DNA of 64,000 nucleotides, from assembly GCA_934140155.1 (NCBI GenBank), contig CAKPBC010000004.1, forward strand, positions 65,675 to 129,674. The letters run 5' to 3'. The position numbers were made by a program, and so were the translations under genes. This DNA is from an uncultured Bacilli bacterium (GTDB lineage: Bacteria; Bacillota_I; Bacilli_A; RFN20; CAG-826). Every line of letters starts with the position of its first letter. Positions within the stretch are counted from its first letter, which is position 1. The notes beneath the pieces are model-generated. The model made no database searches. It was not told where the DNA came from and worked only from the letters and a program-made list of their open reading frames with translations. This document shows positions 15,920 to 48,961 of this stretch, in pieces.

Positions 15920-18283
15920 TTAGAGTTTGTAATCTAATGAATTTTTAGATGTATATGACTTCCATTCTGCATCATCGTAGTTGTAAGTCATGTATCTAAT
16001 TCCGCCATAAGCCATAAATGTATTATAAGTACGGCTAATGTATTCAACTTGGTAAGAAATTAAAGTTGCACTGTATGAGTAAACAATTGGTACTGTATAG
16101 TAAGCGCCTAAGATTTGTGCTTCAAGAGCGGCGATTAATCCAATTCTATCTTCTGCTGCTACTGCACCTTCTGACCAGTCTTCAGCGCCTTGTCCGTTAA
16201 GGCAATAATACCAATCCATTAATGACATTGTGTATTCTTTTCCGCGCATTGTGTAAGTCATTTTTTGGCTTGATGTATTCCAAGCTGCAGAATACATATA
16301 GTTTGGTGATAAGTAAGCTAATAAGAAATAACCTGGATCCCAAGCTCCGCCAGTCCATCCACCAATACAAATTTCATAAGCGCCTGATCTAAAATCATTT
16401 GCCCATTGGCTTTGGTAAGCTTTGTGTTGTAATTCTAATTTTCCTTCAAGTTTTGTATCTTTAACCATGTTTTTCAAAGCAGTCTCAAGAAAATCAAATG
16501 TTCTAAGGAACGAAGAAGATGTATCATCAGCAGTTCCTACTACTAATACAACTTTATCCGTATCTTTAATATCTCCTGCTGCTAGTGCCTTATCATAAGC
16601 ACTATCAACTAAAGCACGTGCTTGTTTTAAATCATAGCCCGTAATTGCGGCTTGTGCTGCATCTAAACTATCATATTTAGAAGGATCAATGCCATAAACT
16701 TTGCATAAAGTTTCTTTAGCAGCAGCAGCATCTCGATATGCTTTACCATGAGCTACATCGTAGTAGTGAACTGGTGTAAATATACCAAATCCAGCTTTTG
16801 AACTTGTTGTACATTTAGCCGCATATTCACTTCTATCAATAGCTAAGGAAATTGCTTTTCTAAAATCATTTTGTAATAAAATAGTTTTGTTAACACCAGC
16901 TTTTGAATTTGATCTTAATGCTTTTTCACTTGATTGAAGTTGTAAAGATTGAACAAAGTCACTAGGAGTAAATACCGCTTGTGAACTATTTTTATAATCT
17001 GCGGCTACAGAAGGATCAATGCCAATTGAAGTTAAATTACCTTTTTGGAAAGCTTGCCATGCTGATTTCCATTCTGGAATTGTTTCGCATACAATTCTAG
17101 TTGTCATATATTGACCTTTATATAAATCGGTATTATATCCATACCAGTTTTCATTCTTTTCAAGGATGTATTGTTTACCAGTTTGGAAAGAAGTTAATTT
17201 ATAAGGTCCCCAAGATGCAGTAGAGGAAACATCACTATTATAAGTTGAAGTCCATAGTGTTGAACCAAGTTGTGGTGCTTTTTTATTAGCTTCATATTTT
17301 GATTTTTGAACTAATGGTAAACTTGACATATTATAAGCAGCTTTATAACTTAATGAACCATCTTCTTCTAATAATTGAAGTGGATTATCAAGAATCAATA
17401 CTAATTCAAAATCATTATCACCTACAAATAATCCTACATTACCATCATAATCCATTTTTGGGAAATCATAGTACATGGATGCTTCATCTAAGAAATAACT
17501 AACCATTACTTCTTCAGTAGTTCCAAAAGCCGCAGCCATATTTACCCACAAGTCACGAAGTTGTTTTATAGTTAAACCACTATCAACGATTTCATCTTTT
17601 GCCTCACCTATTTCTTTTCCGTCTTTATCTAAAACGGCTCCGAATGAGTAATCCCAGTTAATATAACCTTTTTCATTACCGAATTTAGTGAGGAAAGCAT
17701 CTACGCTAGATAATTTATCATTAGCAATAACTTCTGTAGGTGTTGCTAAAGCCTTTTGTCCATTATTGAAATAGTTCTTGGCGTTATGGATAACATTAGC
17801 ACCTGTATAGAAAGAATCAGCACGATAGTTTTTAAATTCTGGCGCTAATTGTTCTTTCATGGTATAAACGAAATCGGATGCATCAATCTTACTTCCATCG
17901 TCCCATTTTAAGTCTTGTCTTAAAGTAATCTTATACGCCCTAGCTGATTGTGAGCCAGCAGGGATACCCCATTTTTCATTACCAGCGTAAGTCTTGGTAA
18001 CATCTTCAAGTTTAGTTGCGGCATCATAGTTAACAGTGAAATCATTATCAATGATCTTTCCTTTACTATCAAACTTATAATCGAAACTAAAGAATGAACT
18101 ACCAATTTGTGACATAATCTGAGTATCGTTTTCGTCTTGATATGTTAATTCATTCCAGTTAGACGGCGATACCATAGTGTAGTTGCGATAAGTGTAAACA
18201 CCTTTTCCTTCACCTCCTCCGCCACAAGATGCTAACGAAGTGATAGCAAAAATTGAGAGTAACAAAAAATTGTTCCTTTTCAT
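15920..18283 (-). CDS. oppA: oligopeptide-binding lipoprotein OppA (family-5 substrate-binding protein)
   Basis: The lipoprotein signal MKRNNFLLLSIFAITSLASCGG, the 787-aa size and its position as the first gene of the opp operon support this call. Confidence 0.65.
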   Translation of the reverse strand: MKRNNFLLLSIFAITSLASCGGGGEGKGVYTYRNYTMVSPSNWNELTYQDENDTQIMSQIGSSFFSFDYKFDSKGKIIDNDFTVNYDAATKLEDVTKTYAGNEKWGIPAGSQSARAYKITLRQDLKWDDGSKIDASDFVYTMKEQLAPEFKNYRADSFYTGANVIHNAKNYFNNGQKALATPTEVIANDKLSSVDAFLTKFGNEKGYINWDYSFGAVLDKDGKEIGEAKDEIVDSGLTIKQLRDLWVNMAAAFGTTEEVMVSYFLDEASMYYDFPKMDYDGNVGLFVGDNDFELVLILDNPLQLLEEDGSLSYKAAYNMSSLPLVQKSKYEANKKAPQLGSTLWTSTYNSDVSSTASWGPYKLTSFQTGKQYILEKNENWYGYNTDLYKGQYMTTRIVCETIPEWKSAWQAFQKGNLTSIGIDPSVAADYKNSSQAVFTPSDFVQSLQLQSSEKALRSNSKAGVNKTILLQNDFRKAISLAIDRSEYAAKCTTSSKAGFGIFTPVHYYDVAHGKAYRDAAAAKETLCKVYGIDPSKYDSLDAAQAAITGYDLKQARALVDSAYDKALAAGDIKDTDKVVLVVGTADDTSSSFLRTFDFLETALKNMVKDTKLEGKLELQHKAYQSQWANDFRSGAYEICIGGWTGGAWDPGYFLLAYLSPNYMYSAAWNTSSQKMTYTMRGKEYTMSLMDWYYCLNGQGAEDWSEGAVAAEDRIGLIAALEAQILGAYYTVPIVYSYSATLISYQVEYISRTYNTFMAYGGIRYMTYNYDDAEWKSYTSKNSLDYKL

Positions 18284-18513
18284 ACAAATTATTCCTTTCT
18301 TAGGACAGTCAATCGTCCCGTAAATTTTAATTGCCGTTATCTTACCATATCTAATTTTGGCTTGTCAATAAATTTTTTATACATTATTTTATGTAATCGA
18401 TTTCAAATATATAATCAAAAAAGTTCCAACAAATCCAATTAATGTCGTAATTTATATATTTTGGCTGAGAAAATGTAATATCATTTTTAATATAAAAATG
18501 AAGATTTCAATAC

Positions 18514-25579: not shown

Positions 25580-26518
25580 CTATAAACTAAAAATTATAAT
25601 TAAGACAATACCTAAAGTCATCAATGCCAATCCAATAAATGATCTTAAAGTAAACTTTTCATGTAAGAATAAAATCGAAATCATCATTGTTAACAATATT
25701 GCTAACTTAGATATCGATGTAACCGCAACTGGATTGGCGCCTACATAATTAAGTGCTTCATATTCGCTAATCCATGCTACACCAGTAGCAATTCCTGATA
25801 AAGTAAGAAATATCCAAGATTTACCAGTAATCTCATTAACTTCTTGATAATCTTTTCTTGCTAATACGATAATCATAGCAAAGATAAATACAACAATAGT
25901 GCGAATACAAGTTCCTAATGAACTAGAAATATCTTTTAAACCAATTTTTACAAATAAAGAAACTAACGATGCAAAGACTGCACTTAAAATCGCATAAAGC
26001 AACCATTTTTTATCATTCTTTTTGTTTTTGCTTTCGACTTTTCCAATCATTAAAAGAGTACCAGCAAGCATAAGAGCCATAGAAAGGAATAACATCACTA
26101 TCGTTAATAGATTACCATTATTTGTCGTATCATTAAAGAAAAAGATTAAGAATAAAATACTTGTCAAAATAAAGCTAGATTTATCAATTGGTGCTACTTT
26201 AGATACATCACCTAATTTAATAGCTCGATAATAACATAGCCATGATAATCCTGTTGCAATGCCAGAAAGAATTAAAAACAACCAATTTGATGTCGTTAAT
26301 GAGTTAAATAAGGCAAAACTATTTGTTATAAAACACATTATTACTGCGAAAATAATAACTACACCTGTACGGAAAAATGTGGCAAAATTTGAATTAACAT
26401 TTTTTATACCAACTTTAGCAAATATTGTGGTAAGGGATGTAAAAAGCGCACCAATTAAAGCCATAACAATCCACATAAACACCCCACCTCGTAAACAAAA
26501 AATTCCTAAGTTATCCAC
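25580..26518 (-). CDS. EamA/DMT-family transporter
   Basis: 10-TM protein with duplicated 5-TM halves. The likely true start is MWIVMALIGA near 26476. Confidence 0.6.
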   Translation of the reverse strand: MDNLGIFCLRGGVFMWIVMALIGALFTSLTTIFAKVGIKNVNSNFATFFRTGVVIIFAVIMCFITNSFALFNSLTTSNWLFLILSGIATGLSWLCYYRAIKLGDVSKVAPIDKSSFILTSILFLIFFFNDTTNNGNLLTIVMLFLSMALMLAGTLLMIGKVESKNKKNDKKWLLYAILSAVFASLVSLFVKIGLKDISSSLGTCIRTIVVFIFAMIIVLARKDYQEVNEITGKSWIFLTLSGIATGVAWISEYEALNYVGANPVAVTSISKLAILLTMMISILFLHEKFTLRSFIGLALMTLGIVLIIIFSL

Positions 26519-26533
26519 CTAGGAATTATATAC

Positions 26534-27967
26534 TTATTTTATATCTTTTAAAACCCCTATGGCATCACTAATGGTTTTTTCTTTAGCTAAATTACCATAT
26601 TTATCAACTTCGGTTTTATCACGTAGTTCGTGAGTTAAGCAACATGGTCCACCAATACAACCATTAATGCAGCCCATTCCTTCAATAAAGTTAAAATCAC
26701 GAGCCGGTGACTGAGCTTTGATTAATCCCATTTTACAATTATCCAAGCCATCACAAACTAAAGGTTTAACTTCAAAATCAATATTTTGTTCTTTGAGTGA
26801 TTGCTTAACTGCATCAGATAAACCACCCGTTCTTGCAAATATTCTTCCAAAATATGAGGCGTTATCTAAAACACTTTCTTCTAACTTAGAAGCATCAATA
26901 TCGCGGCTATCAATTAATGCTTGTAACTCTTCAAAAGTTAAAACATAATCTACATAATCTTTAACACGTTCATCTTTGATTTCTTGCTTTTTTGAAACAC
27001 ATGGTCCAATAAACACTACTTTAGCATTTGGGGTAATTTCTTTAATGTATTTCCCTAATGTCGCCATTGGTGACAAATTAGAAGAAATATTCTCTACTAA
27101 TTTTGGATAGTTCTTTTTAATAAAAGAAACAAACGTTGGACAACATGAGGAAGTTAAGAATCCTTTTTCACTTAATTCTTTTGCTTCTTCATAGCTTACC
27201 ATATCCGCGCCAAGAGCTGCTTCAACAACACTATGGAAGCCTAATAATTTAATAGATGTCACAACTTGTCCTAATGTTGCGTATTTAAACTGTGAAGAAA
27301 TTGAAGGGGCCACAATAGCGTAAATAGGATATTTTTTTGAAAAATCGCTATCTTTAATCATTTTGATGACATCAACAATACTTGATTTATCCATGATTGC
27401 GCCAAATGGACATTGATATACACATGCTCCACATTGAACACATTTACTATCATCTATCTTAGCCGCAAAATCTTCATCAGTGGATATCGCTTTTACTTTA
27501 CAAGCTTGAACACATGGTCTTAAGAAATTTTGAATAGCGTTATATTGGCAAGCTTTAGAGCATAAGCCGCAATTTACACATTTTGTTTTATCGATAATTG
27601 CCGTTCTTGTATTTGGATTAAAAGATATTGCCGCACGATGACATGCTTTTTCGCAACGATGCGCAATACATCCTCTACATCTATTCGTGACTTCATATCC
27701 TCCAATAGGGCATTCATCACAAGCAATTTTGATAACTTCAACAATATTATCAATATTTTTGTTACCACCCATTGCTAATTTCATACGCTCTTCCACAATT
27801 GCACGTTCTTTATAAATACAACAGCGCATGCTAGGTTTTGGACCTGGCACTACTTTTTTAGGTATTTCATAAAAATCTTCGACTAATGAATCATTAAAAG
27901 CGGATTTAGCCATTTCTTTTAAAACTTTGTACTTCAACTCTTGAACATTTGTGTCAAATTTTAACAT
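26534..27967 (-). CDS. [FeFe]-hydrogenase-like protein with N-terminal multi-[4Fe-4S] ferredoxin domains (non-canonical H-cluster motifs)
   Basis: Ferredoxin Cys motifs (CVNCGLCSKACQ, CVQCGACVYQCP) precede an H-domain with L1 TSSCCPTF, L2 GPCVSKKQE and L3 EGMGCINGCIGGPCC. Confidence 0.65.
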   Translation of the reverse strand: MLKFDTNVQELKYKVLKEMAKSAFNDSLVEDFYEIPKKVVPGPKPSMRCCIYKERAIVEERMKLAMGGNKNIDNIVEVIKIACDECPIGGYEVTNRCRGCIAHRCEKACHRAAISFNPNTRTAIIDKTKCVNCGLCSKACQYNAIQNFLRPCVQACKVKAISTDEDFAAKIDDSKCVQCGACVYQCPFGAIMDKSSIVDVIKMIKDSDFSKKYPIYAIVAPSISSQFKYATLGQVVTSIKLLGFHSVVEAALGADMVSYEEAKELSEKGFLTSSCCPTFVSFIKKNYPKLVENISSNLSPMATLGKYIKEITPNAKVVFIGPCVSKKQEIKDERVKDYVDYVLTFEELQALIDSRDIDASKLEESVLDNASYFGRIFARTGGLSDAVKQSLKEQNIDFEVKPLVCDGLDNCKMGLIKAQSPARDFNFIEGMGCINGCIGGPCCLTHELRDKTEVDKYGNLAKEKTISDAIGVLKDIK

Positions 27968-27985
27968 GATTTTTCCTCACTTATT

Positions 27986-29164
27986 TTAAAAATAACTAAC
28001 TTTTATGTTTTTGCCCATTAGTTTTAGCATTTTCGCTAATTCATCAATAAGTTGCATTTTTAATGAAAAACTTAAATGAACATCATCACTTTGATGGGCA
28101 TTATTAATTGCACATCCTACAAAGAAGTTAATGTCTGTTGCTTCTTCAAATAATAATTTAGCAATTTGAGAAGCACCATCTCTTTTATAACTCCAATCAA
28201 AATACGAATGGTTTTTCCCTTGTAGCATGTCTTTAGCGTAATCTAATACTCTATTAATCGTAATTACACCTTCAGTTACTAAATCTACGCCTTCAATACT
28301 TGCAGTAGGCGGTATTTCTTTATCAATGTAATCAAGTGCTAAATCAAGTGGCTTATGTAAATATTTAGCCACAATGTTAGAGGTTGTTCCCCCACTAACA
28401 ATATGTTTACCACCTTTAGCAAAAAATAGAGATAACATCTTTTCATCATCATCTTTATTTGAAGCTGGGCCAATTAATAAATTAACTTGACTTCTTTCCC
28501 TAATTCGCACAACTGCAGCAGTTGTGTCATCGCCAGGACGATGATTATATAGTTCATTACAATAATCTACCAAACTTGTTGCAAGTGACATTGAAGAATA
28601 AGACTTTTGATATAATCCTTGCAAAAAATCTTTAATTTGCGGAATGTCCCAGCCAAAATTAAGAGTTTCACCAATTCCTGCATGAACCACGCCATCGCTA
28701 AATAATACAAACGTGTCATACAAGTTAGCTTCAAGTTTTGTATGGTAAACTTTTTTATCATCAACAATTTTTAGTGTCCAATCCAAATCTTTACTTTTAC
28801 CATTACTAATAACAAAAGGCATTGGATTATCATAATTATAAATTTCAACAAGGCGATTATTTTCTACTTTTATAATCGTAAAAGTAGAATAAGCAATACA
28901 ACGTTCTTTACAAACAGGAAGTGTTTCGGCAATAGTATCCACACATTCTTTTATAGAAACATTTTTAGCAATCATTGTCGATAACATTTTAGCAGTTAAA
29001 GTTGATAAAATATTAGCTTTTACTCCACTACCTAAGCCATCAGCAAGCACCAAAATTGTTGTATCATCATTAGGATGAATAACTTCAATATGGTCGCCGC
29101 ATAATTGTTCACCAACATGGTTATAGGATAAATATCCTACTTCGGTAATATACTTACTTATCAT
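27986..29164 (-). CDS. PP2C/SpoIIE-type serine phosphatase with C-terminal DRTGG-like domain
   Basis: N-terminal CGDHIEV...ILVLADGLGSGVKAN matches the PP2C metal-binding motifs. The C-terminal GGKHIVSGGTTSNIVAKYL region is DRTGG-like. Confidence 0.55.
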   Translation of the reverse strand: MISKYITEVGYLSYNHVGEQLCGDHIEVIHPNDDTTILVLADGLGSGVKANILSTLTAKMLSTMIAKNVSIKECVDTIAETLPVCKERCIAYSTFTIIKVENNRLVEIYNYDNPMPFVISNGKSKDLDWTLKIVDDKKVYHTKLEANLYDTFVLFSDGVVHAGIGETLNFGWDIPQIKDFLQGLYQKSYSSMSLATSLVDYCNELYNHRPGDDTTAAVVRIRERSQVNLLIGPASNKDDDEKMLSLFFAKGGKHIVSGGTTSNIVAKYLHKPLDLALDYIDKEIPPTASIEGVDLVTEGVITINRVLDYAKDMLQGKNHSYFDWSYKRDGASQIAKLLFEEATDINFFVGCAINNAHQSDDVHLSFSLKMQLIDELAKMLKLMGKNIKVSYF

Positions 29165-30836
29165 TTTTCAAAGTATCCTTTAACGATAACAACGCTACTT
29201 TAGTTTCCGCAGCTGATTCACCTAATAAAGAGGCAATTTCTTGAACAGCGCGCATGTTTTTTTCAATTACTTCGTTTGTAATTTCAACTGATTTTTTGAG
29301 TACTTCTTCACGTTTTTGTAAAGATATTTCGTTTTTAGTTATATCGCGCATAACGCAAATCAAAATATGGAATTTACGATCATAAATAATCGTATTTTCA
29401 ACATATTTATCATATTCGCTTAAATACATTTTCTTAAAAATAGTATTATCATATTCTCCTAATGCTCGAGCGTATTCTGTTGGATCTAAAATCATCGTAA
29501 CATTCTTTTTTAATACAATATTCGGAGAACTAATACCAACAATTTTACACATTGCACTATTCATCAATTGAATATTTAAATCTTCATCTAAGACCATCAA
29601 TCCATTTGGAGTATTAGAAACAATTTTATCCGAGAATGATTGCGCTTTTTCCATTAAGAATGGCAAACACATCTCAGGAATTGCTTTTCCTTGAATAATT
29701 GCAATGGCTTTTTCTCTACAAGTGTTATATCCACATGATCCACAATTTAATTCTGCAGATTTATCTAATTTTCCCATCAATTTTAATGTGTTTTCGATAT
29801 CAGCTTCTGATGGTACAGCATGAATTAAAGAGTAAGGATTATAAGTTTGACTAATATTAGTTTCATTAATTTCCATATTGTCAAAATCTTTTTTACCTGC
29901 TGCATTTTCAATAGCTAAATAGCTAGTTACTACACTGCGGGCTTTATCTTTAATCATTGGACCATTTACACAGCTACCATGACAAGCAGACATCTCAATA
30001 AAACATTTATGAATTTTTCCATTAATAATATCTTCTAAAGCATAGCGAGCACTATTAATGCCATCAATGGAAATATATTTAAAATCTTCATTTGTTGTGT
30101 CCATTGTTTTTAAAATGCCGCCGCAAGTTGGAAAAAATCTCGCTTTCGATTTTTCAATAGATACTGAATCACTTGTTTCAATATTGATATTGTTATCATT
30201 TAGCCAATCATCTAACTCAGTAAATGTTAAAACTGCATCAATATATTCTTTATTTAAATCAGCTTCATCTTTTTTAGCAATGCAAGGTCCTACAAAGACA
30301 ACTTTCGTATCTTTACCATATCTTGTTTTAATATCTAAGCCATGCGCAAGCATAGGTGACAAAACATTTGCTAAATATTTCAAAGCTTTTGGATAATATT
30401 TTTGAATTAATAAGTTAATAGAATGACAGCACGATGAAATAATAACATCGTGCTTGTCATCTAACATTTTATTATAAGCGTTTTTTACAATTGTGGCTCC
30501 AACCGCAGTTTCTTCCACATCGTAAAATCCTAATTTTTTTAAAGCATCCCGCATTGTGTCAATGCTTGAATCTTTAAAGTTCGAAATAAAACTTGGGGCT
30601 ATTGAAACTATTACCTTGTCTCCATTTGCAATCATTTTCTTGACTTTTTCTATATCATTTCTAACAACTTTGACCTTTTGCGGGCAAGCTAAATAACAAC
30701 TGCCACACAAGATACAATCATCGTGTATAATAGTCGCTTTATTATTAGCAAATGAAATAGACTTAACTGGACAAGTACGAATACACTTATAACAATTTTT
30801 ACAGTTATTCGTTCTACTTTCTAGGCAATACTCCAT
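29154..30836 (-). CDS. sensory [FeFe]-hydrogenase (HydS/HfsB-like) with C-terminal Cys4 motif and PAS domain
   Basis: N-terminal ferredoxin motifs (CKNCYKCIRTCP, CILCGSCYLACP); H-domain L1 ISSCCHS, L2 VGPCIAKKDE, L3 EMSACHGSCVNGP; an extra CGSCGYNTC...C cluster; and a C-terminal PAS-like domain (NGLMVLDEDLNIQLMNSAMCKIVG...). Confidence 0.7.
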   Translation of the reverse strand: MEYCLESRTNNCKNCYKCIRTCPVKSISFANNKATIIHDDCILCGSCYLACPQKVKVVRNDIEKVKKMIANGDKVIVSIAPSFISNFKDSSIDTMRDALKKLGFYDVEETAVGATIVKNAYNKMLDDKHDVIISSCCHSINLLIQKYYPKALKYLANVLSPMLAHGLDIKTRYGKDTKVVFVGPCIAKKDEADLNKEYIDAVLTFTELDDWLNDNNINIETSDSVSIEKSKARFFPTCGGILKTMDTTNEDFKYISIDGINSARYALEDIINGKIHKCFIEMSACHGSCVNGPMIKDKARSVVTSYLAIENAAGKKDFDNMEINETNISQTYNPYSLIHAVPSEADIENTLKLMGKLDKSAELNCGSCGYNTCREKAIAIIQGKAIPEMCLPFLMEKAQSFSDKIVSNTPNGLMVLDEDLNIQLMNSAMCKIVGISSPNIVLKKNVTMILDPTEYARALGEYDNTIFKKMYLSEYDKYVENTIIYDRKFHILICVMRDITKNEISLQKREEVLKKSVEITNEVIEKNMRAVQEIASLLGESAAETKVALLSLKDTLKNDK

Positions 30837-30853
30837 GAATGCCCCTCCTTTTT

Positions 30854-31099
30854 TTATAATTTGGCTAATACATGTTTTGCGAATGTTTCATCAAAATTTT
30901 CTTTTGTAACGCCAGTAATAATCTCGTCATCAACTTTAATTGATACTCCTGCAACACCACATTTGCCTAAGCAAAATGTGGCTTTGAGAGTAACTTTATC
31001 TTCAATGTTATTCTTTTTAATAGCATCTTTCATCAATTCAATGATATCATAACTACCTTTTAAATGGCATGATGAGCCAACGCAAACCAATATTGTCAT
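30854..31099 (-). CDS. thioredoxin-like [2Fe-2S] ferredoxin (NuoE/HndA-like small protein)
   Basis: 81 aa with the four-Cys pattern CVGSSCHLKG...FCLGKCGVAG. Its start is 2 nt after the adhE stop. Confidence 0.6.
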   Translation of the reverse strand: MTILVCVGSSCHLKGSYDIIELMKDAIKKNNIEDKVTLKATFCLGKCGVAGVSIKVDDEIITGVTKENFDETFAKHVLAKL

Positions 31100-31101
31100 A
31101 A

Positions 31102-33717
31102 TTAATTGCCTTTATAAGCCTTTCTTAAGATTTCTTTCATATCTTCAACAAGAGGAACACGTGGGTTAGCAGGTGAACATTGATCTTCATAAGCTAATAC
31201 AGCCATTCTTTCTAGTTCAGCATTCCAATCTTCTTCAGCAATACCCATTGCAGCAAAGTTAGGATCAAGTCCAACTTCTTTTGTTAAGTTAGTTACAGCA
31301 GTAGCCAATGATTCAACAGCGATTTCTGGAGTATCAGCTTTTAAGCCTACTAATCTAGCAATGTCTTGATATTTCTTATCAGCACAGTAGTGGTTATATT
31401 TTGGCCATACAGATAATTTGGTTGGAACTTGTCCATTATATCTAATTACATGTGGTAATAATACAGCACAAGCATAACCATGAACACAATGGAATTGTGC
31501 ACCAACTTTATGAGCAAGTGAGTGAGTCATACCTAAGAATGCGTTAGCAAATGCCATACCAGCAATTGTTGCAGCATTATGCATCTTTTCACGAGCTTCT
31601 AAGTCATTTTTACCATTCTTAACAGCACGTGGTAAATATTCAAATACCATCTTAATTGCTTGTAAAGCTAAACCATCAGTATAGTCACTTGCTAATACTG
31701 AAACATAAGCTTCAATAGCGTGAGTTAAGACATCCATACCTGTCATAGCAGTTGGGCGTGCAGGTAAGTTAGTTGTAAATTCTGCATCAACAATAGCAAC
31801 TGTAGGTGTTAAAGAATAGTCAGTTAAAGGATATTTCTTGTTATTTGCTTTATCAGAAATAACAGCGAATGGAGTAACTTCACTACCTGTACCAGATGTA
31901 GTTGGGATACAAATTAATTTAGATTTTTTACCTAATTCAGGATATTTGAAAGCTCTCTTACGGATATCCATGAATTTTTGTTTTAAATCATCAAAGTTAA
32001 CTTCTGGGTGTTCATAGAATAACCACATACCTTTAGCGGCATCCATTGGAGATCCACCGCCTAAAGCGATAATAGTATCTGGTCCAAATGCTTGCATTAA
32101 ACGTAATCCACGTTTAACTGTTTCAATATCTGGATCTGGTTCAACATCACAGAATAATTGTACTTGAACTTTATTCTTTCTTAAATTTAATTGTTCAGTA
32201 ACTTTATTTACGAAACCGAAATCAACCATTGAACGGTCGGTAACAATAAAGACTTTATTAACATCACGGCAAGATTGTAAATATTGAATTGAATTTCTTT
32301 CAAAATAAATCTTACGAGGAACTTTAAACCATTGCATAGTATTTCTCCTTTTACCTACTTTCTTAACATTTAATAAATTAACGGCACTAACGTTACCACC
32401 AATTGAGTTTTTACCATAACTACCACAACCTAATGTTAAAGATGGTAAGAATGAGTTATAAACATTACCAATACCACCAAATGTAGATGGAGAGTTCCAA
32501 ATAATACGCATTGCTTTGACTTTTTCGCCATATGCATCAGCCATAGCTTGTTCTTTACAGTGAATAGCAGCACTATGTCCTAAACCATTAAAACAAACCA
32601 TTTGTTCAGCAAGTTTAAATCCTTCTTCAGCATCTTTTGATTTTAAAATTGCTAATACTGGTGAAAGTTTTTCTCTTGTCATTGGTTCTTTTGGTCCAAC
32701 CATATCACATTCAACTGCTAAAATAACTGTATCTTCAGGAACTTCAAATCCTGCTTGCTCTGCAATCCAGTGAGCAGATTTACCAACAACGTTTGGATTT
32801 AATTTTGCTGTTTCAACATTTTCATCGCCATGAGCGAAGCCAAACATAAATCTAGATAATTTGACTTTTTCTTCTTTATTTACAAAGTAGACTTTAAATC
32901 TAACAAATAAATCTTTTGCTTCTTTATAAATTTCTTTATCAATAATTGCAGCTTGTTCAGAAGCACAAATCATACCATTATCAAATGATTTTGATAAAAC
33001 GATATCATTAACTGCTTGTTCAACATCAGCATCTTTATGAATATAAGCTGGAACGTTACCAGCGCCTACACCCATTGCAGGTTTTCCGCAGCTATAAGCA
33101 GCTTTAACCATTGCGTTACCACCAGTAGCTAAAATTGTAGCAACACCTGGATGATTCATTAATGCACTTGTAGCATCCATTGAAGGATGTTCAATCCATT
33201 GAATACAATTTTTTGGTGCACCAGCTGCAACAGCAGCTTCATACATTACCATAGCAGCAGCTTTTGAACTTTGTTGTGCTGATGGATGGAATGCAAATAT
33301 AATTGGATTACGAGTTTTTAAACAAATTAATGATTTAAAAATAACAGTACTTGTTGGGTTTGTTACTGGAGTGATACCACAAACTACGCCAATTGGATCA
33401 GCGATTTCAGTAATACCAGTTACTGGGTCATCTTTAATAACTCCAACTGTTTTAAGATGACGCATATTATTTACAACATATTCACAAGCGAATAAGTTCT
33501 TAGTGGCTTTATCTTCAAATACGCCTCTTTTTGTTTCTTCAATTGCCTTAGCAGCTAATGTGCCGTGGTGATCAAGACCTGCAACTGAACATTTTGCGAC
33601 AATATAGTCGACTTTTTCTTGATCTAAGTTTAGAAATTCATCTAAAGCTTTTTGAGCATTTTTAACAAGTTTATCAACTTCTTCTAATGCTGCAACGTTT
33701 TCAACCTTATCTCCCAT
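31102..33717 (-). CDS. adhE: bifunctional acetaldehyde-CoA / alcohol dehydrogenase AdhE
   Basis: 871 aa with an N-terminal ALDH domain (catalytic Cys in ...NGMICASEQ...) and a C-terminal Fe-ADH domain (GGGSPMDAAK, histidine-rich HxxxH region). Confidence 0.9.
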   Translation of the reverse strand: MGDKVENVAALEEVDKLVKNAQKALDEFLNLDQEKVDYIVAKCSVAGLDHHGTLAAKAIEETKRGVFEDKATKNLFACEYVVNNMRHLKTVGVIKDDPVTGITEIADPIGVVCGITPVTNPTSTVIFKSLICLKTRNPIIFAFHPSAQQSSKAAAMVMYEAAVAAGAPKNCIQWIEHPSMDATSALMNHPGVATILATGGNAMVKAAYSCGKPAMGVGAGNVPAYIHKDADVEQAVNDIVLSKSFDNGMICASEQAAIIDKEIYKEAKDLFVRFKVYFVNKEEKVKLSRFMFGFAHGDENVETAKLNPNVVGKSAHWIAEQAGFEVPEDTVILAVECDMVGPKEPMTREKLSPVLAILKSKDAEEGFKLAEQMVCFNGLGHSAAIHCKEQAMADAYGEKVKAMRIIWNSPSTFGGIGNVYNSFLPSLTLGCGSYGKNSIGGNVSAVNLLNVKKVGKRRNTMQWFKVPRKIYFERNSIQYLQSCRDVNKVFIVTDRSMVDFGFVNKVTEQLNLRKNKVQVQLFCDVEPDPDIETVKRGLRLMQAFGPDTIIALGGGSPMDAAKGMWLFYEHPEVNFDDLKQKFMDIRKRAFKYPELGKKSKLICIPTTSGTGSEVTPFAVISDKANNKKYPLTDYSLTPTVAIVDAEFTTNLPARPTAMTGMDVLTHAIEAYVSVLASDYTDGLALQAIKMVFEYLPRAVKNGKNDLEAREKMHNAATIAGMAFANAFLGMTHSLAHKVGAQFHCVHGYACAVLLPHVIRYNGQVPTKLSVWPKYNHYCADKKYQDIARLVGLKADTPEIAVESLATAVTNLTKEVGLDPNFAAMGIAEEDWNAELERMAVLAYEDQCSPANPRVPLVEDMKEILRKAYKGN

Positions 33718-33720
33718 TTT

Positions 33721-34368
33721 TTACTCCTCCTGAAATTTCTTTTTTAGTTTATGAGATAATACTGCTAACGATGATGCAAGATTGACATTTTCAACCACAA
33801 CATCGTCATTTACTTTTAGGTTAATTGGCGCGAAATTCCAAATTCCTTTAATGCCAGCATCAACTAATAATTCCGCGACTTCTTGCGAAGCGGATGCTGG
33901 GGTAGTTAATATCGCAATACTAACGTTTAATCTTGGAACTAAATTTTTTAGTTTTGCCATTGGAAATACTTGCTTGCCATTTATTACTTTACCAATCTTT
34001 GATTCATCATTATCAAATCCCGCTAAAATATTAAGGCTAAATTCTGCGAATCCTTTATAATTCATAAAAGCTTCACCTAAGTGTCCAACACCAACAATGA
34101 TTGCATCGCTAATATTGTGGTAACCTAAGAATACTTCGATATCATTAATAAGAACATTAATATCGCGACCTGTATTCGGTCTACCTTTTGAAGTAGTCAC
34201 TACTTGAAGATCTTTTTTTACTTGTTCTTCTGATTGATCAAGTGCTCTAGCAATAAGTGGAGCGGTAATTGTTACCACACCGGCATCACGCATTGATTTG
34301 AGATATTTTAAGTATATCGGAAATCTTTGTAATTGCCTTACTGATACTCCATCAAGCATAGTTTTCAC
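33721..34368 (-). CDS. rex: redox-sensing transcriptional repressor Rex
   Basis: N-terminal wHTH (RFPIYLKYLKSMRDAGVVTITAPLIARALD), Rossmann GVGHLGEAF, 215 aa. Its stop lies 3 nt before the adhE start, and the adhE RBS sits inside its 3' end. Confidence 0.85.
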   Translation of the reverse strand: MKTMLDGVSVRQLQRFPIYLKYLKSMRDAGVVTITAPLIARALDQSEEQVKKDLQVVTTSKGRPNTGRDINVLINDIEVFLGYHNISDAIIVGVGHLGEAFMNYKGFAEFSLNILAGFDNDESKIGKVINGKQVFPMAKLKNLVPRLNVSIAILTTPASASQEVAELLVDAGIKGIWNFAPINLKVNDDVVVENVNLASSLAVLSHKLKKKFQEE

Positions 34369-34567
34369 TCCTTCGGTATTCTTTTACCGAATTAAGTGTA
34401 TCGCAGACATTACATACTTGTCAATATAATCTCTTATGACATCGCTTTCATCGGTAAAATAAACAGTTTGTTTTTTAATTCATAATTAAAAACAATATCT
34501 TACATCTAATTTTAACAATTTGCTTATGTATTAGGCAAGAAAAAAAGAGCAAATCGAAATGATATCG

Positions 34568-35728
34568 TTATTTGCCCTTCTTTTGTGTAATATGAAACGT
34601 AATTTCAATCATTATTATCATTAAAGAAGCAAAAATCAAAATATAGATTGGAAATATTTTATAGCCGATTTTTCCACCTATTAATCCAAACAAAGGCGGC
34701 ATAAATGAAGTACCTAAATAAGCACTGGCCATCTGTATTCCAATAATTGCTCCAGAATTTTCTTTTCCAAAATTTAGTGGTGTTGAATGAATAATACAAG
34801 GATATATTGGAGCACAACCTAGTCCAATAATAACAAAAGCCGAAATAGCAACATAATAAGAATTTATCGGTAAAAGCAATAATACTATTCCTATCGTTAG
34901 TATCGATGTACCTAATATAATCATTTTCTTATCACCTAATTTATCGGTAATAAATCCTGATAAGAATCTTCCCACTGTTATACCTATATAAAATAAAGAG
35001 GCAAAATTAGCGGCATCACCAGCTTCTATCCCCTTTACTTCTACAAAATAAGTGCTTGCCCATTGCATTGATGTAGCTTCTAACGCTGAATAAGAAAAGA
35101 AACCAATAAGTAAAAATATTACTCCACGTATCTTTAATGCTTTAAATAAACCAATATGCTTAGTTTCTTCACTAGTAACATTTGAATTAACATTCCAAAC
35201 TTTTAATGTGCAAAGTAGAAATACTGTAATAACTAATTGGATTATTCCAACAATACGATATCCCATATTCCAAGTCATATTTTTTAAAGCAAAGCCCATG
35301 ATAAATGGACTAACTATAGTTCCTACTCCCCAAAAGCAATGTAACCAACTCATATGTTTAGCTTTGTAATGAATTGCCACATAGTTATTTAAAGCGGCAT
35401 CTATCGCCCCAGCACCTAAGCCATAAGGTATTGCAAAAAGAATTAGCATCCAAAATTGGCTAGATAACGAAAAACCAAATAATGCAATTGTAGTTAAAAA
35501 CACGCTTGCAACTGTTACTATTTTAGTTCCGAACTTTGTCGTTAATTTATCTGATAATAAACTAGATATAACTGTACCAATAGCAATAGTCATAGAAACT
35601 ATTCCCATATATGAAGTTGGAACATTCATTTCTATGTGCACTACTGGCCAACATGATCCAAGCAATGAATCGGGTAACCCCAAGCTTATAAAAGCTATAT
35701 AAATAATAACTAATAAAAAAGAATACAT
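34568..35728 (-). CDS. MFS transporter
   Basis: 386 aa, 12 TM helices, MFS-like loop motifs. Confidence 0.7.
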   Translation of the reverse strand: MYSFLLVIIYIAFISLGLPDSLLGSCWPVVHIEMNVPTSYMGIVSMTIAIGTVISSLLSDKLTTKFGTKIVTVASVFLTTIALFGFSLSSQFWMLILFAIPYGLGAGAIDAALNNYVAIHYKAKHMSWLHCFWGVGTIVSPFIMGFALKNMTWNMGYRIVGIIQLVITVFLLCTLKVWNVNSNVTSEETKHIGLFKALKIRGVIFLLIGFFSYSALEATSMQWASTYFVEVKGIEAGDAANFASLFYIGITVGRFLSGFITDKLGDKKMIILGTSILTIGIVLLLLPINSYYVAISAFVIIGLGCAPIYPCIIHSTPLNFGKENSGAIIGIQMASAYLGTSFMPPLFGLIGGKIGYKIFPIYILIFASLMIIMIEITFHITQKKGK

Positions 35729-37286: not shown

Positions 37287-38318
37287 CTACTTAAAATATT
37301 TTTGATTTTTACTACTAGGTTTATCAGGAATAGTCATTTTCACCAATCCGTTTTCAATAGCAGGATTCAAATAATTAGCGCGTAATGTTTCTTTTGATTT
37401 TATATCAAGCCGACGCATTATCTCATTAGCGCTTAATGGAATATCATAATCCATTATTTCTAATAGTTTATTTACTTGTTCAGATATATTTTTTGATTCT
37501 TGTACAAAGTTATTGCTAATTTCATCAATACTTTCATCAATAAGTCTAAGCATAAATTCAATAAACTTATTAGAATCACCATTTTTATGGCACTCAGATA
37601 TTGAGTTATAATATTCATCTTGATATTTTTGAATTCTTGATTCAAGTGGAATATATTCAAAAATTGGATTCCATTTCATCAATAAGACATTTTGCCATAA
37701 TCGAGCGGTTCTTCCATTTCCATCACTAAAAGGATGAATAAAAACAAATTCATAATGAAATACACATGATTTTATAAGCATTGGTGTTTCTAAATCATTT
37801 TTTAACCAATCAAATAAATCATGCATTAACGCTGGAACAAATTTTTCTGATGGCGCAACAAATATTACTTGTTTCCCATCAAATACACCTTCAGCATGGT
37901 TACGATATTGTCCTGAATCATTTTCAATTAAATATGTTAATGTTTCATGTGCTTTTAATAAATCTTTTTCATTATAACAATCAAAGTCATTTATCATTTC
38001 GTATGCTTTATATGCATTTTTAACTTCTTGAATTTCTTTTTTTGGACCTATTACAGTTTTTCCCATAATAACATCTCTAACTTGATTCAAAGATAAAGAA
38101 TTAGCTTCAATTGCCAAAGATGAATGAATTGATTTTATACGATTATTCTTTCTTAAAATCGGCATTCTTTTTAACGAATTGAAAATAGAAATCTTACCTA
38201 ATTTTTCTGCGATAGATATACACTTTGAAAGCATGTTATTAGTAATTGAAAAAGGTGGCTTATACATAACTTTCCTCCTGTTAATAGTATAAACCACCAT
38301 CAAAATTTTATCAACCAT
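37287..38318 (-). CDS. Fic family protein (AMPylase-type) with C-terminal wHTH
   Basis: Canonical Fic motif HPFSDGNGRTARL and an N-terminal inhibitory-helix-like SSLAIEAN. The likely true start is MYKPPFS near 38267. Confidence 0.8.
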   Translation of the reverse strand: MVDKILMVVYTINRRKVMYKPPFSITNNMLSKCISIAEKLGKISIFNSLKRMPILRKNNRIKSIHSSLAIEANSLSLNQVRDVIMGKTVIGPKKEIQEVKNAYKAYEMINDFDCYNEKDLLKAHETLTYLIENDSGQYRNHAEGVFDGKQVIFVAPSEKFVPALMHDLFDWLKNDLETPMLIKSCVFHYEFVFIHPFSDGNGRTARLWQNVLLMKWNPIFEYIPLESRIQKYQDEYYNSISECHKNGDSNKFIEFMLRLIDESIDEISNNFVQESKNISEQVNKLLEIMDYDIPLSANEIMRRLDIKSKETLRANYLNPAIENGLVKMTIPDKPSSKNQKYFK

Positions 38319-38476: not shown

Positions 38477-38538
38477 GCATCATGAAAGATTTATCTAGCT
38501 TGTAATTTTAATATGTTAGTGTCATTGGAGGAAAGAAT

Positions 38539-39490
38539 TATGAAAAAGACAAATAAATATTTATTAACATTATTATTAGGGATGACATTAGCATCATGCG
38601 GAGGTAACAATACTTCTAACTCATCAAAAGTAGAATTTGATACAAGTAAAAACATTACTGTTTATACTCGTGATACCGATAGCGGTACTCGTGATGGTTT
38701 CTTTACGAAAATCGGATTAAAAGACGCTGTTAAATCAAATGAACCTTTAGTTAAAGGCGCTGTTGAAACTAACGGAAATGGCGATATGGTTTTAAAAGTT
38801 AAAAATGATGAATATGGTATTGGTTATATTTCCTTATCATCATTAGAAGAATCTTCCTTAACTGGATTAAAATATGAAGGTGTTGAACCAAATGAAGATA
38901 ATGTATTAAATGGAAGCTATGGCTTAACAAGAAACTTCAATTATATTATTCGTAATGAATTTGATAGTGATACTAAAAAAGATATCGTCAATGCTTTTGT
39001 TGCTTATATGTCTACTAAAGAAGCTAAAGCCACAATTATAGCTAACTCAGGTATTGTTAAGTTAAATAAAGATGATAAAAGTTGGGATGATATTAAAGCA
39101 AATTACCCAATCACCAATCAGGATAACTCAAACATTACAATTAAATTTGGTGGTTCTACTTCTGTTGAAAAGATTGCTAAAGCATTATCGCAAGAATTTG
39201 CTAGTAAATGTGGTAATTTCAAACCAGAACATAATCACGCTGGATCAGGTGATGCTTATAAGTTCACTCAAGGAGAAGAAAAAGATTCTACTAGTAAATT
39301 AGATATTGGCTTCTTGTCCCGTGAATTAAATAGTAATGAAGTTGCCGCAGCTAACACAAGCGGATTAATATGTATTGATGCAATTGTCGCGGTTGTTAAT
39401 AATAAAAACTCATTAACCGCAATTACCGCAAATGAACTTAAAGATATATATACTGGCGTAACTACAAAATGGAATCAACTAATAAAATAG
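38539..39490 (+). CDS. pstS: phosphate ABC transporter substrate-binding lipoprotein PstS
   Basis: RBS GGAGGAAAG followed by ATG at 38539, lipobox LLGMTLASCGG, and position at the head of pstCAB-phoU. The ORF-track start at 38513 has no RBS and is probably upstream read-through. Confidence 0.75.
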
Positions 39491-40425
39491 AAATATCTAA
39501 AAATAAAATAAAAAACAAAACCACTTTAGACCAAATCGTTAAAGTGGCTTTTACGTTTATTGCTATGATTTGTGCGTCAGTGATCATAGTAATTGTTGCT
39601 TTTATTTTTATTGAAGGGCTAAAACCATTTTTTACTAATTATGAAATAAATGGCATTAATTATCGACCTAGTTTTTTTCCTTTTGTTTTTGGCTTATCTT
39701 GGGAAGCTAGTCCTTACCAATATGGTATTGGATTTATTATTATTAACACATTGTACGTAACATTATGTAGTTTATTAATTGCGGTTCCAATTTCTGTTCT
39801 TACTGCCTTATTTATTGTAAGAATTGCACCGAAATTTTTAAGCAAAACACTTAATTATATCATTGAATTATTAGCAAGTATCCCTTCTATTATCTATGGT
39901 ATTTTTGGTGCTGGAGTTATTACTAATATTGTTAAAAATCTAGCTAATTTATTTAATTATCAAAGCGCTGGTGGGGTATCAACATTAGCCACTATCCTCG
40001 TACTAGCCATGATGATTATTCCTACTATCACCTTAATTAGTATAACAAGTATTAAAACCGTTAAAGAAGATTACATTAAAGGGTCATTAGCATTAGGAGC
40101 AAGTCCGACTCAAACCAATTTTAAAGTTGTTCTTACTAGTGCAAAATCTGGCATTTTTTCAGGTATTATCCTTGGTGTTGGAAGGGCACTTGGTGAAGCT
40201 ACCGCAGTAACTATGGTCGCTGGTAACGCTACAAGTGGACCAACATTTAATTTATTTGATATAACCAGAACATTAACTTCAACAATGCTAGCGAATATTA
40301 AAGAAACCTCAGGATTATCTTATGATATTCGATTTAGTGTTGGTATATTTTTAATTTTAATTATTTTAGTCACTAATTTGATTTTAAATTTTATAAGGAA
40401 AAGGATTGGAAATTATGAAAAATAA
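39469..40425 (+). CDS. pstC: phosphate ABC transporter permease PstC
   Basis: 6-TM permease with the EAA-like loop region. Confidence 0.8.
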   Translation: MESTNKIEISKNKIKNKTTLDQIVKVAFTFIAMICASVIIVIVAFIFIEGLKPFFTNYEINGINYRPSFFPFVFGLSWEASPYQYGIGFIIINTLYVTLCSLLIAVPISVLTALFIVRIAPKFLSKTLNYIIELLASIPSIIYGIFGAGVITNIVKNLANLFNYQSAGGVSTLATILVLAMMIIPTITLISITSIKTVKEDYIKGSLALGASPTQTNFKVVLTSAKSGIFSGIILGVGRALGEATAVTMVAGNATSGPTFNLFDITRTLTSTMLANIKETSGLSYDIRFSVGIFLILIILVTNLILNFIRKRIGNYEK

Positions 40426-41617
40426 ACGTAAATTTAAAGATTTATTATTACAAATAATCACCTATCTTTTTTCTAGTTTTGGCATAATTATTTTAGGCGC
40501 CATATTTGTATTTATATTCGTAAAAGGTGGCTCTACTTTATCATTTAATATGATTAAAGGTGATTATTATCAAGAAGTATATAATGTTAAATACGAAAAT
40601 AAAAATACGATTGATTTAGAATATAAAGAAATTAACAATGCTTTTTATTCTTCACGTTGGGGTATTGCTTTAAGTGATGGAACTAATAATGCCGGAGAAA
40701 ATGTTGTTTATGTTTCTTATATTGATGCTTCTTCTCCGATTAAATCCATGAAAAATCAATCTAACAATGAAAGCATTATCTTACAAAAAGGTTACATTGT
40801 AACAAAAATTGTTTTAACTGATGAAGAAGATAATATGATTGTCGCCATCAGTAAATATAAAGCAGAAAAAATGATTAATCAAATCAATAAAGGCGTCACT
40901 ATTAACGATATGCAACTCACCACAAGCGGAGGCGGTATTAGAGGTTCTCTTATTACCACATTTATCTTAATTGGATTAACTTTAATAATTGCTTTACCAA
41001 TTGGTATTGGTGGCGCAATTTATTTATCAGAATATGCTAAAAGCAATAAATTTACCGCAATAATTCGTACAATGATTGATATGTCTAGTGGCATTCCTTC
41101 GGTAGTATTTGGTTTAGTAGGTATGGTCATATTTATTCCATTTATGAATGCCACAATTGGATCAAACGGAACAAGTATTGCTGCTGGTGCTTTAACAATG
41201 GCAATTATGTTACTTCCAATTATTATTCGTACTACTGAAGAATCAATAAGAGCAATACCACAAAGTTACCGTCATGCTTCTCTTGCTTTAGGAGCAAGTA
41301 AAACACAAACAATATTTAAAGTTGTTATACCTAATGCATTAGGAGGTATATTAACTTCAACTCTTTTATCTATTGGAAGAATTATTGGAGAAAGCGCTGC
41401 TTTAATATATGTAATGGGAACAGCAATAAAAGATGATGTGTTTATTAATAAAAACTCTACTTCTCTTGCTATACACATGTGGTCGATTATGGCGGGCGAT
41501 AATCCTAATTATGCACAGGCTTCCGCGATTGCTATCATAATTTTATTTATTGTTTTATTACTAAATATATTAGTTAAAGTAATTGTAAAAAAATTCAACA
41601 AATTCGAGGTGAAATAA
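40406..41617 (+). CDS. pstA: phosphate ABC transporter permease PstA with ~130-aa extracytoplasmic insertion after TM1
   Basis: The C-terminal 270 aa are PstA-like and an extra hydrophilic loop follows the first TM. Confidence 0.8.
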
Positions 41618-41618
41618 A

Positions 41619-42368
41619 ATGGATACTGTATTTAAAGTAACAAACTTAAACTTATTTTATGCGGAAAAGCACGCCCTAAAAGATATTAATATTGATATTT
41701 ATAAAAACACTATTACCGCATTTATTGGTCCATCAGGATGTGGAAAATCAACATTATTAAGATGCTTTGATAGAATGAATGATTTAATTGATAATTGTAA
41801 AATTACTGGTGATATTTTATATAACAATACTAATATCAAAAATATTAATCCTATTGAATTAAGAACAAGTGTTGGAATGGTATTTCAAAATCCTAATCCA
41901 TTCCCAATGTCCATATTTGATAACATTGCTTATGGTCCAAAATGTCAAGGTATTAAAAATAAAGCAACACTAAATAAAATAGTTGTTGATGCTTTAAAAA
42001 AGGCTGCTTTATATGAAGAAGTAAAAAATCGTTTAAAAGATTCTGCGCTTAGTTTAAGCGGTGGACAACAACAAAGATTATGTATTGCTCGCGCAATTGC
42101 GATGAATCCAGATGTAATTTTAATGGATGAACCAACATCAGCGCTTGATCCAATTGCGACATTAAAAATTGAAGAATTAATTGAAACATTAAAGAAAGAC
42201 TATACTATCATCATTGTTACTCATAATATGCAACAAGCAACAAGAATTAGTGATTATACTGCTTTCTTTATGTTAGGGGAAATCGTTGAATACGAACAAA
42301 CAGAAAAATTATTTAGAAACCCGAAAAATAAGAAAACAGAAGATTATATTACAGGAAGGTTTGGTTAA
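41619..42368 (+). CDS. pstB: phosphate ABC transporter ATP-binding protein PstB
   Basis: Walker [10 protein letters not shown], signature [14 protein letters not shown] and Walker [12 protein letters not shown]; 249 aa. Confidence 0.9.
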
Positions 42369-42369
42369 T

Positions 42370-43011
42370 ATGAAAATACAAAATGAAATTGAAAATTTAA
42401 ATGAAATGCTAATTAAAATGGCCGATGTTGTTGAGCGTAATCTTTTATTAGCTTTTGCTCTTTTTCATAATTATGATGAAGAAATTGCGCTTCAAATTGG
42501 TGATGATAAAGTCAATGACTATGAAAGAAAAATTGAAGAATATTCCATGAATTTAATGTTAAAAGAGCGTTTCTTTGCTAAAGATATGCGTAGTGTTCTT
42601 GGTATTTTGACATTAGTGGGTGACTTAGAAAGACTTGGTGATCACGCTGAAGATATCAATATTTTTTCTAAAAAATTAAAAAACGAAAAGAAATATAAAA
42701 TTGATGATATTAATAAAATGATTGATTTAGCAATGAAGATGGTTCATGACTCAATTGAATCATTTATTAAAAAAGATATATCCCTTGCACAACAAGTAAT
42801 TATTAGCGATGATTTAATTGATAATTTATACGATAAATTATTAGATATCATTATAAAATTAAAAGATGATAATCAAGTATCATCTAGTTTTGCAATTTAT
42901 ACCACTCTTGTTGTAAAATATATTGAAAGAATTGCCGATCACGCTTCTAACATTGCTGAATGGGTGATTTACATTCTTAATGGTTATTACAAAGATAAAC
43001 AAATTTTTTAG
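42370..43011 (+). CDS. phoU: phosphate transport system regulator PhoU
   Basis: Two PhoU repeats (DLERLGDHAEDI and IERIADHASNIAEWVIY). The start is ATG at 42370, immediately after the pstB stop. Confidence 0.8.
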   Translation: MKIQNEIENLNEMLIKMADVVERNLLLAFALFHNYDEEIALQIGDDKVNDYERKIEEYSMNLMLKERFFAKDMRSVLGILTLVGDLERLGDHAEDINIFSKKLKNEKKYKIDDINKMIDLAMKMVHDSIESFIKKDISLAQQVIISDDLIDNLYDKLLDIIIKLKDDNQVSSSFAIYTTLVVKYIERIADHASNIAEWVIYILNGYYKDKQIF

Positions 43012-43022
43012 AGGTTAAAGTT

Positions 43023-48952: not shown

Positions 48953-48961
48953 ATATAGCAC

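Follow-up and report, generated by a model that had tools for sequence, protein, structure and literature searches.

An uncultured member of the Bacilli carries, on the minus strand of a 64,000-nucleotide stretch of contig CAKPBC010000004.1 (hereafter the window), the gene of a Rex-family redox repressor in a row with those of an aldehyde/alcohol dehydrogenase, a ferredoxin, two [FeFe] hydrogenases and a protein phosphatase. The locus raises the question of whether these six genes form one regulated unit of ethanol and H2 metabolism, and whether such a unit is new. From the genes present, their orthology and synteny, the boundaries of the row and the cis-elements conserved around it, all observed here, we consider it likely that the row is a six-gene operon, rex-adhE-fdx-hydS-pp2c-hydA2. 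It would represent a counterpart, without the kinase and with a single ferredoxin, of the eight genes clustered on plasmid pRUMAL01 of Ruminococcus albus 7, and would encode the ‘high-H2’ branch of fermentation along with the regulators of that branch. A function as an NADH- and H2-responsive ethanol/H2 switch is plausible.

The preliminary description of this DNA had six genes running head-to-tail with very short spacing, and the listing of open reading frames (ORFs) bears this out: the six minus-strand ORFs have the coordinates given in Table 1, with the first listed as 33721-34368, and lie 3, 2, 17, -11 and 18 nt apart. The rex stop codon is indeed found 3 nt before the adhE start, with the adhE ribosome-binding site (AGGAGG) in the last codons of rex. 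The proposed identities (Rex, AdhE, a [2Fe-2S] protein, a hydrogenase with a PAS domain, a PP2C phosphatase and a second [FeFe] hydrogenase) are correct by Pfam and NCBIfam, the Fe_hyd_lg_C, PAS, SpoIIE and Rex models all being matched in the cluster proteins. Rex scores 242.7 bits against NF003994 (cutoff 130), matches Rex structures of the Protein Data Bank (PDB; 1xcb, 2vt2, 3wg9) over its full length with E = 1e-27 to 1e-31, and keeps the NAD(H)-binding GxGxxG as GVGHLG. Its true start is most likely ATG 34359 and not GTG 34368, since the ATG stands 8 nt after AAGGAG and agrees with the N-termini of homologues. AdhE is 70–81% identical to the enzymes of Bacilli-type relatives.

A tblastn search of plasmids with the PAS-hydrogenase led to pRUMAL01 (52% identity over the full length), where an annotated region encodes on one strand rex, adhE, a ‘phosphotransferase’, two (2Fe-2S) ferredoxins, a PAS-hydrogenase, a SpoIIE phosphatase and a 478-aa 4Fe-4S/[FeFe] hydrogenase. 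Every protein of the R. albus cluster except the kinase finds its best match, over nearly its full length, in the corresponding window gene (blastp/tblastn), at identities of 38% for Rex, 46% for AdhE, 53% and 43% for the two ferredoxins, 52% for HydS, 55% for PP2C and 64% for HydA2. Zheng et al. (J Bacteriol 196:3840, 2014) reportedly described the R. albus rex-adhE-hydS-hydA2 cluster. Later, Greening et al. (2019) found a ‘putative eight-gene cluster’ of this organism to be down-regulated 111-fold when a syntroph removes H2 (PMC6776011), hydS and hydA2 are described as one transcriptional unit (PMC10838669), and the cluster is treated as co-regulated and H2-responsive in both of these papers and, with reference to Zheng et al., in PMC5707799, with a further summary in PMC11837493. 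Because a cluster of the same order has thus already been published as H2-responsive, the idea that the window encodes a new control circuit does not hold, and the linkage is moreover common in relatives.

The extent of this linkage was determined from a genome scan with a HydS alignment, which confirmed at least 588 loci; synteny was read from the best 80 species representatives, and upstream genes were counted in the 50 loci with at least 5.2 kb of upstream sequence. The phosphatase gene lies 3' of hydS in all 69 scorable loci and is followed by hydA2 in 56 out of 62. Of the 50 loci, 29 have adhE directly upstream of hydS and 24 contain rex as well, so the rex-adhE-hydS linkage, whose conservation in relatives had been raised as a point to check, is common; a kinase gene is present in 36. 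Among the 50, only L003 and L016 have adhE without the kinase. The kinase-less single-ferredoxin form occurs also in L006, in L083-86 (a cluster including Firmicutes bacterium CAG:449), in L087 and in L088, and no kinase gene was found in the Bacilli-labelled relatives examined. Relatives with a HydS 76–79% identical to that of the window carry the same six genes between different flanks (FeoAB, MatE or DegV upstream; Rce1/LGT, MFS or CLC downstream), and preservation between unrelated flanks argues that the six genes behave as a unit. Locus L089:4084-9842 (HydS 68% identical) has adhE-fd-hydS-pp2c with neither rex nor hydA2, and a 346-aa protein without Pfam match follows. The host had been called ‘Mollicute-like’, which is apt for the base composition of the window (GC ~29%) but not otherwise: TGA serves as stop codon in 6 of 49 window ORFs, the genome uses genetic code 11 and is thus low in GC without having the genetic code of Mycoplasma, and kinase-less loci, where labelled, are assigned to Bacilli, Erysipelotrichaceae or Firmicutes CAG:449.

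The predicted boundaries make a single transcription unit, as originally proposed, likely. On the upstream side, a strong predicted intrinsic terminator of the MFS transporter gene insulates the operon from upstream transcription, and one good promoter-like site lies between it and rex; its geometry recurs in L083, L087 and L088 (TTGACA-17/18-TACAAT or TAAAAT). On the downstream side, the EamA gene probably starts past the terminator that follows hydA2. Within the cluster, the short gaps leave no room for a promoter or terminator between genes, and the terminator-like matches are weak and located in the coding sequences of rex and adhE. Together with the retention of all six genes in relatives, these features make a single operon probable, and we infer that the genes are co-transcribed.

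Table 1. Features of the rex-adhE-hydS locus, in positions of the window.
Feature	Position	Strand	Evidence or remark
Intrinsic terminator of upstream MFS transporter gene	34540..34584	-	RNA fold -16.4 kcal/mol, z = -4.98, U run after
cre (CcpA-type catabolite-responsive element), consensus match TGAAAGCGATGTCA	34437..34450	-	perfect; centred ~56 nt upstream of predicted start
Predicted sigma-70-type promoter, TTGACA-18 nt-TACACT	34395..34424	-	best minus-strand promoter-like site in 24-36 kb
20-bp palindrome TTCGGTAAAAGAATACCGAA (TTCGGTA-N6-TACCGAA), candidate operator	34372..34391	-	conserved; spans predicted transcription start
rex, Rex-family NAD(H)-sensing repressor, 212 aa from ATG 34359	33721..34359	-	NF003994
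adhE, bifunctional acetaldehyde-CoA/alcohol dehydrogenase, 871 aa	31102..33717	-	NF010378, 1400 bits vs cutoff 951
fdx, thioredoxin-like [2Fe-2S] ferredoxin, 81 aa, Cys 6, 11, 43, 47	30854..31099	-	PF01257 (2Fe-2S_thioredx), 38.7 bits vs 24.8
hydS, putative H2-sensing [FeFe] hydrogenase	29154..30836	-	Pfam; 52% identity full-length to R. albus HydS
pp2c, PP2C/SpoIIE-family Ser/Thr phosphatase, uncharacterised Rossmann-like C-terminal domain (residues ~225-392)	27986..29164	-	SpoIIE/PP2C match
hydA2/hfsD-type monomeric ferredoxin-dependent [FeFe] hydrogenase, 477 aa	26534..27967	-	TIGR04105
Intrinsic terminator directly 3' of hydA2	26501..26527	-	11-bp stem + U run; RNA fold -12.7 kcal/mol, z = -3.1

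Two further elements stand at the predicted promoter. Perfect matches to the cre consensus number two in the 64-kb window, compared with 0.1 expected, and the one outside this locus lies at 18392-18405, upstream of an oligopeptide ABC binding-protein gene (15920-18283). A cre upstream of the matching promoter is present also in L016 and L083-86, and in L089 as a one-mismatch version. A cre at a similar position mediates the activation of ackA and pta by CcpA in Bacillus subtilis, which the cre of the rex operon would parallel by analogy.

The second element, the palindrome TTCGGTAAAAGAATACCGAA, begins 3 nt past the -10 hexamer and reaches the ribosome-binding site. It occurs once in the window and likewise once, at the same position and amid neighbouring sequence that is not conserved, in the kinase-less relatives L006, L016, L083-88 and L105, the last from a lineage of ~50% GC; it was not found in L003. 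Clostridial loci including that of R. albus have a related palindrome, TATCGATA-N-ATACCGATA, about 100–120 nt 5' of rex, and the related motif was found in L001 and ~25 Clostridial loci. A relaxed pattern, TCGRTA-N5-9-TAYCGA, yielded 35 matches in 1.45 Mb of loci versus 1.5 in shuffled sequences, and 33 of these 35 closely precede the first cluster gene. Many Clostridial loci also have a TGNRAA-N8-TTYMCA element at -35.

The palindrome hairpin folds at -8.8 kcal/mol, and an Rfam search of the window returned two tRNAs and no other RNA family. We rejected the reading of the palindrome as an RNA element: its left arm contains the predicted start and the Clostridial copies lie upstream of the putative -35, so that a DNA site is more likely. 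A metagenome scan for TCGGTAAAANAATACCGA, in which 80 of 120 matching stretches were examined, gave no sign of a wider regulon; rex, with or without adhE, is directly downstream in only 5 of the 80, the rest being unrelated hairpins or matches in coding sequence. An identical stretch of ~80 nt, ...ATCATAACACC-TCGGTAAAAAAATACCGA-AGCGTTATGATAAT..., in which the same 18-mer forms part of a longer inverted repeat, is common to some 20 metagenome contigs (L090, L092, L098, L106, L115, L118, L119 and about 12 others), several of which bear a human gut label. This stretch is an unrelated repeated element.

Judged by its motifs, HydS has the architecture of the M2f/group C sensory hydrogenases, whose definition includes a C-terminal Cx2Cx4Cx16C (PMC8163306), and is a putative H2 sensor. 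Its Pfam domains comprise two N-terminal Fer4 domains, Fe_hyd_lg_C, an FeS domain (PF04060) and PAS (24.8 bits vs. 22.6), and the four Cys residues C365/368/373/390 precede the PAS domain, in line with the sensory type with C-terminal Cys4 cluster that had been recognized initially. In a phmmer alignment to the hydrogenase CpI, GPC185 stands opposite MPC355 (M353->G) and EMS283AC opposite EVM497AC (M497->S). The second hydrogenase had been noted for non-canonical H-cluster motifs; these are real, but they are those of a catalytic family and make it neither a part of the sensor nor an oddity. It matches TIGR04105 (‘monomeric [FeFe] hydrogenase’) over residues 4-446 with 560.6 bits (cutoff 450) and contains Fer4 domains and Fe_hyd_lg_C in Pfam. 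Its motifs SSCCPTF, GPCVSKK and EGMGCINGCIGG agree with those of R. albus HydA2, the variants SSCCPxF, GPCxxKK and EGMxCxxGCIGG being common to both proteins, and the Cys ligands of the H-cluster (SSCCP, GPC, CxxxC) are present. R. albus HydA2 is a ferredoxin-dependent, H2-evolving enzyme (PMC10838669). As the second hydrogenase is of this type, the operon encodes both output enzymes of the high-H2 branch, AdhE and HydA2, plus regulators.

One metagenomic strain of the relative resembling CAG:449 (L085:12860-14153) has hydA2 in two pieces, ORFs of 214 and 221 aa; a frameshift, a pseudogene or faulty assembly could account for this. Genes for the maturases HydEFG were not found among window ORFs of at least 150 aa. 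The sole other Fe-S redox protein in the window is a 258-aa fusion of a flavodoxin-like domain with a 2x[4Fe-4S] ferredoxin at 5775-6551.

The phosphatase has an intact PP2C fold and metal-binding Asp residues. Its gene overlaps hydS by 11 nt, and the overlap recurs, at 7–11 nt, in R. albus and close relatives, which suggests that the two are translationally coupled. Of the proposed fusion of a PP2C/SpoIIE phosphatase to a DRTGG-like domain, only the phosphatase stands: the C-terminal half (168 residues) has no Pfam match, including DRTGG (PF07085), at E<=10, and a fold comparison gave no DRTGG-like match. The statement that no partner kinase is present holds within the window, as the R. albus kinase has no tblastn match there at E<1 and the ORFs of at least 150 aa contain no Ser/Thr kinase domain; the sole kinase found is a PhoR-type histidine kinase beside the pst-phoU genes. 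In the kinase-less form, the phosphate donor must therefore be encoded elsewhere.

These components suggest the following mechanism. One promoter upstream of rex would drive all six genes, carbon status would enter through the cre, and the palindrome across the transcription start would be occupied by a repressor that is released at high NADH/NAD+, in the simplest case the Rex encoded by the operon itself. AdhE would dispose of NADH as ethanol and HydA2 of reduced ferredoxin as H2. HydS would use the H-cluster, the C-terminal [4Fe-4S] cluster and the PAS domain to relay H2 to the coupled PP2C, which would alter the phosphorylation of some target and thereby tune the expression or activity of the same branch. 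H2 sensing, the PP2C substrate and the palindrome-binding protein are the parts of this mechanism that we infer.

Several points, set out in this and the next two paragraphs, weigh against such an integrated circuit. The operon is delimited by predicted boundaries, and promoters may also be located in coding sequence. Moreover, the fd-hydS-pp2c-hydA2 module stands alone in other genomes (L002, L004) and is consequently able to run from its own promoter. The locus might then consist of two adjacent, separately transcribed units, a rex-adhE pair of the common Rex-autoregulated kind and an hfs-type fdx-hydS-pp2c-hydA2 unit with a promoter in the 3' end of adhE, in which case the arrangement would reflect functional clustering and not hard-wiring. 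The four-gene module without rex and adhE in Monoglobus and others would fit this, as would rex-adhE with the same palindrome in the lineage of GC ~0.5, although the contigs are truncated there, and the promoter-like hexamers within adhE, although these are no commoner than in shuffled sequence. We regard two units as improbable, given that the 2-nt gap between adhE and fdx has no intergenic terminator, that the junction of adhE with the hydS module is kept in the majority of the 50 relatives counted above, that nearly all relaxed palindrome matches precede the first cluster gene, and that the R. albus homologue acts as one co-regulated eight-gene cluster (PMC6776011).

A second group of points concerns sensing and signal transfer. 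SSCC137H of HydS aligns with TSCC300P of CpI, by which the protein retains the C299-equivalent proton-relay Cys that most sensory enzymes lack and kept in ~17% of sensory sequences (PMC10055695). Even in the literature, H2 sensing by HydS is called ‘putative’, and the phosphorylation cycle is incomplete as encoded in the window, the kinase being absent. The retained Cys, the tight gene coupling and the lowered hydrogenase activity after deletion of the whole hfs operon of Thermoanaerobacterium (PMC5707799) could be taken to favour the original hfsABCD reading, according to which a single multi-subunit catalytic hydrogenase is made up of HydS, the ferredoxin and HydA2, with HydS serving electron transfer or turnover and PP2C being accessory. 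This seems very unlikely to us: the PAS domain, the Cx2Cx4Cx16C and the M353G/M497S substitutions fit the low-activity type of Thermotoga maritima HydS (TmHydS; PMC10055695), PP2C follows hydS without exception in the scorable loci, and deletion of hfsB alone raises both hydrogenase activity and adhE expression, a regulatory phenotype (PMC5707799).

The role of Rex at the palindrome is the third difficulty for the proposed circuit. A search for Rex operators upstream of 34368 had been proposed, and one for the canonical form (TTGTKAA-N4-TTMACAA, up to 3 mismatches) returned a best match with 3 mismatches. The 68 matches window-wide are not clearly above the 52.5 +/- 7.3 expected by chance, so the canonical box was rejected as the operator of this operon; with at most 2 mismatches, it is present in only 4 of 34 related loci containing rex. 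In addition, L089, which has no cis-encoded rex, retains a palindrome, ATCGATAAAAAAATATCGAT, directly before the adhE ribosome-binding site, and in four Clostridial loci (L026, L054, L061, L078) the palindrome is accompanied by a Rex box close to the canonical form (TTGTTAAAATATTAACAA-like), which covers the putative -10 at 30–50 nt upstream of rex. For these two reasons the binder may not be Rex, and we regard the palindrome as a candidate operator that a different protein may recognize. A LysR protein was considered, as a LysR gene precedes rex in R. albus, and was rejected for this lineage because neither the window nor the close relatives L083-L088 contain one.

The cluster-encoded Rex proteins are themselves unusual. 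The wing of the window protein reads KGRPNTGR, and the Rex ORFs of L001-L088 share a wing of the form G(K/R)P(K/R)xG(Y/R) while the recognition helix and GxGxxG are kept. By these features they may form a specialised subfamily, and the atypical wing is compatible with an altered operator. A more far-reaching proposal, which we put forward as a doubtful one, would have this specialised Rex bind TCGGTA-N6-TACCGA (TCGATA-N7-TACCGA in Clostridia) in place of the canonical box, with HydS/PP2C acting on that repressor or on the HPr-Ser-P that feeds the adjacent cre. In that case a single promoter would integrate H2, NADH and carbon status, and a housekeeping kinase would give the phosphate in the kinase-less Bacilli form.

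Elsewhere in the window, two Fic/DOC-domain proteins are encoded at 37287-38318 and 48275-48961, within 11 kb of one another, and a pstS-pstCAB-phoU-phoPR block on the plus strand (38513-45346) coincides with the only GC-skew reversal of the window.

Three features alone go beyond the available literature, namely the palindrome with its conservation, the cre, and the unusual wing of Rex; they are modestly interesting leads. The H2-responsive switch between acetate plus H2 and ethanol that is known from R. albus would extend, in a trimmed form and without a dedicated kinase, to small-genome gut Bacilli, which is relevant to how hydrogen transfer between species is modelled for communities of the gut and the rumen. 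The palindrome, the cre and the Rex wing would also offer a concrete handle on how the HydS/PP2C signal reaches transcription, a question that has stood since 2014.

Comparison with known systems places each part of the locus. With canonical Rex proteins (T. aquaticus, B. subtilis, Thermoanaerobacter), the window protein shares the recognition helix QV(K/R)KDL, the Rossmann GxGxxG and full-length homology, and its gene likewise heads its operon, which suggests autoregulation. It differs in the wing, which is FGxxGxxGxGY in canonical Rex, and in the operator region, where the canonical box TTGTGAA-N4-TTCACAA is missing and a different palindrome takes its position. HydS has the same architecture as TmHydS, namely two [4Fe-4S] domains, the H-domain, a C-terminal four-Cys cluster and PAS, and its Gly and Ser at M353 and M497 correspond to G177 and S267 of that protein (PMC10055695). 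At the C299 position TmHydS has Ala131, whereas the window protein has Cys, and the genomic partners of the latter are PP2C, HydA2, AdhE and Rex.

The hfsABCD operon of Thermoanaerobacterium saccharolyticum, whose locus tags we take to be Tsac_1550-1553, is close to the second part of the window operon. Compared by published description (Shaw 2009; Eminoglu 2017, PMC5707799; PMC11837493), it has a PAS-hydrogenase (HfsB), a Ser phosphatase (HfsC) and a ferredoxin-linked hydrogenase (HfsD) in the same order, by which HfsB corresponds to HydS and HfsD to HydA2 (PMC5707799, PMC11837493). As in the window, there is no kinase in the operon, and hfs has a genetic tie to adhE expression and ethanol yield. 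In contrast to the window, adhE (Tsac_0416, PMC5707799) and rex are found at another locus than hfs, and the place of the thioredoxin-like [2Fe-2S] protein is taken by HfsA, described as unlike known proteins (PMC11837493).

The closest counterpart remains rex-adhE(aad)-kinase-fd-fd-hydS-PP2C-hydA2 of R. albus 7, with which the window operon is collinear, in the same orientation and orthologous gene by gene. The R. albus cluster has in addition the 249-aa APH/RIO-like ‘phosphotransferase’ and one more of the [2Fe-2S] genes, is carried on a 421-kb plasmid, and belongs to a Clostridium-class host (Oscillospiraceae), whereas the window derives from a low-GC lineage with Bacilli-labelled relatives. 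Its related palindrome upstream of rex, TCGATAAAGATAATATCGA, is TCGATA-N7-TATCGA and lies ~100 nt from the gene, compared with TCGGTA-N6-TACCGA across the predicted start in the window. The literature proposes for the R. albus cluster what is proposed here for the window, a switch, dependent on H2 and redox state, to ethanol and ferredoxin-dependent H2 production.

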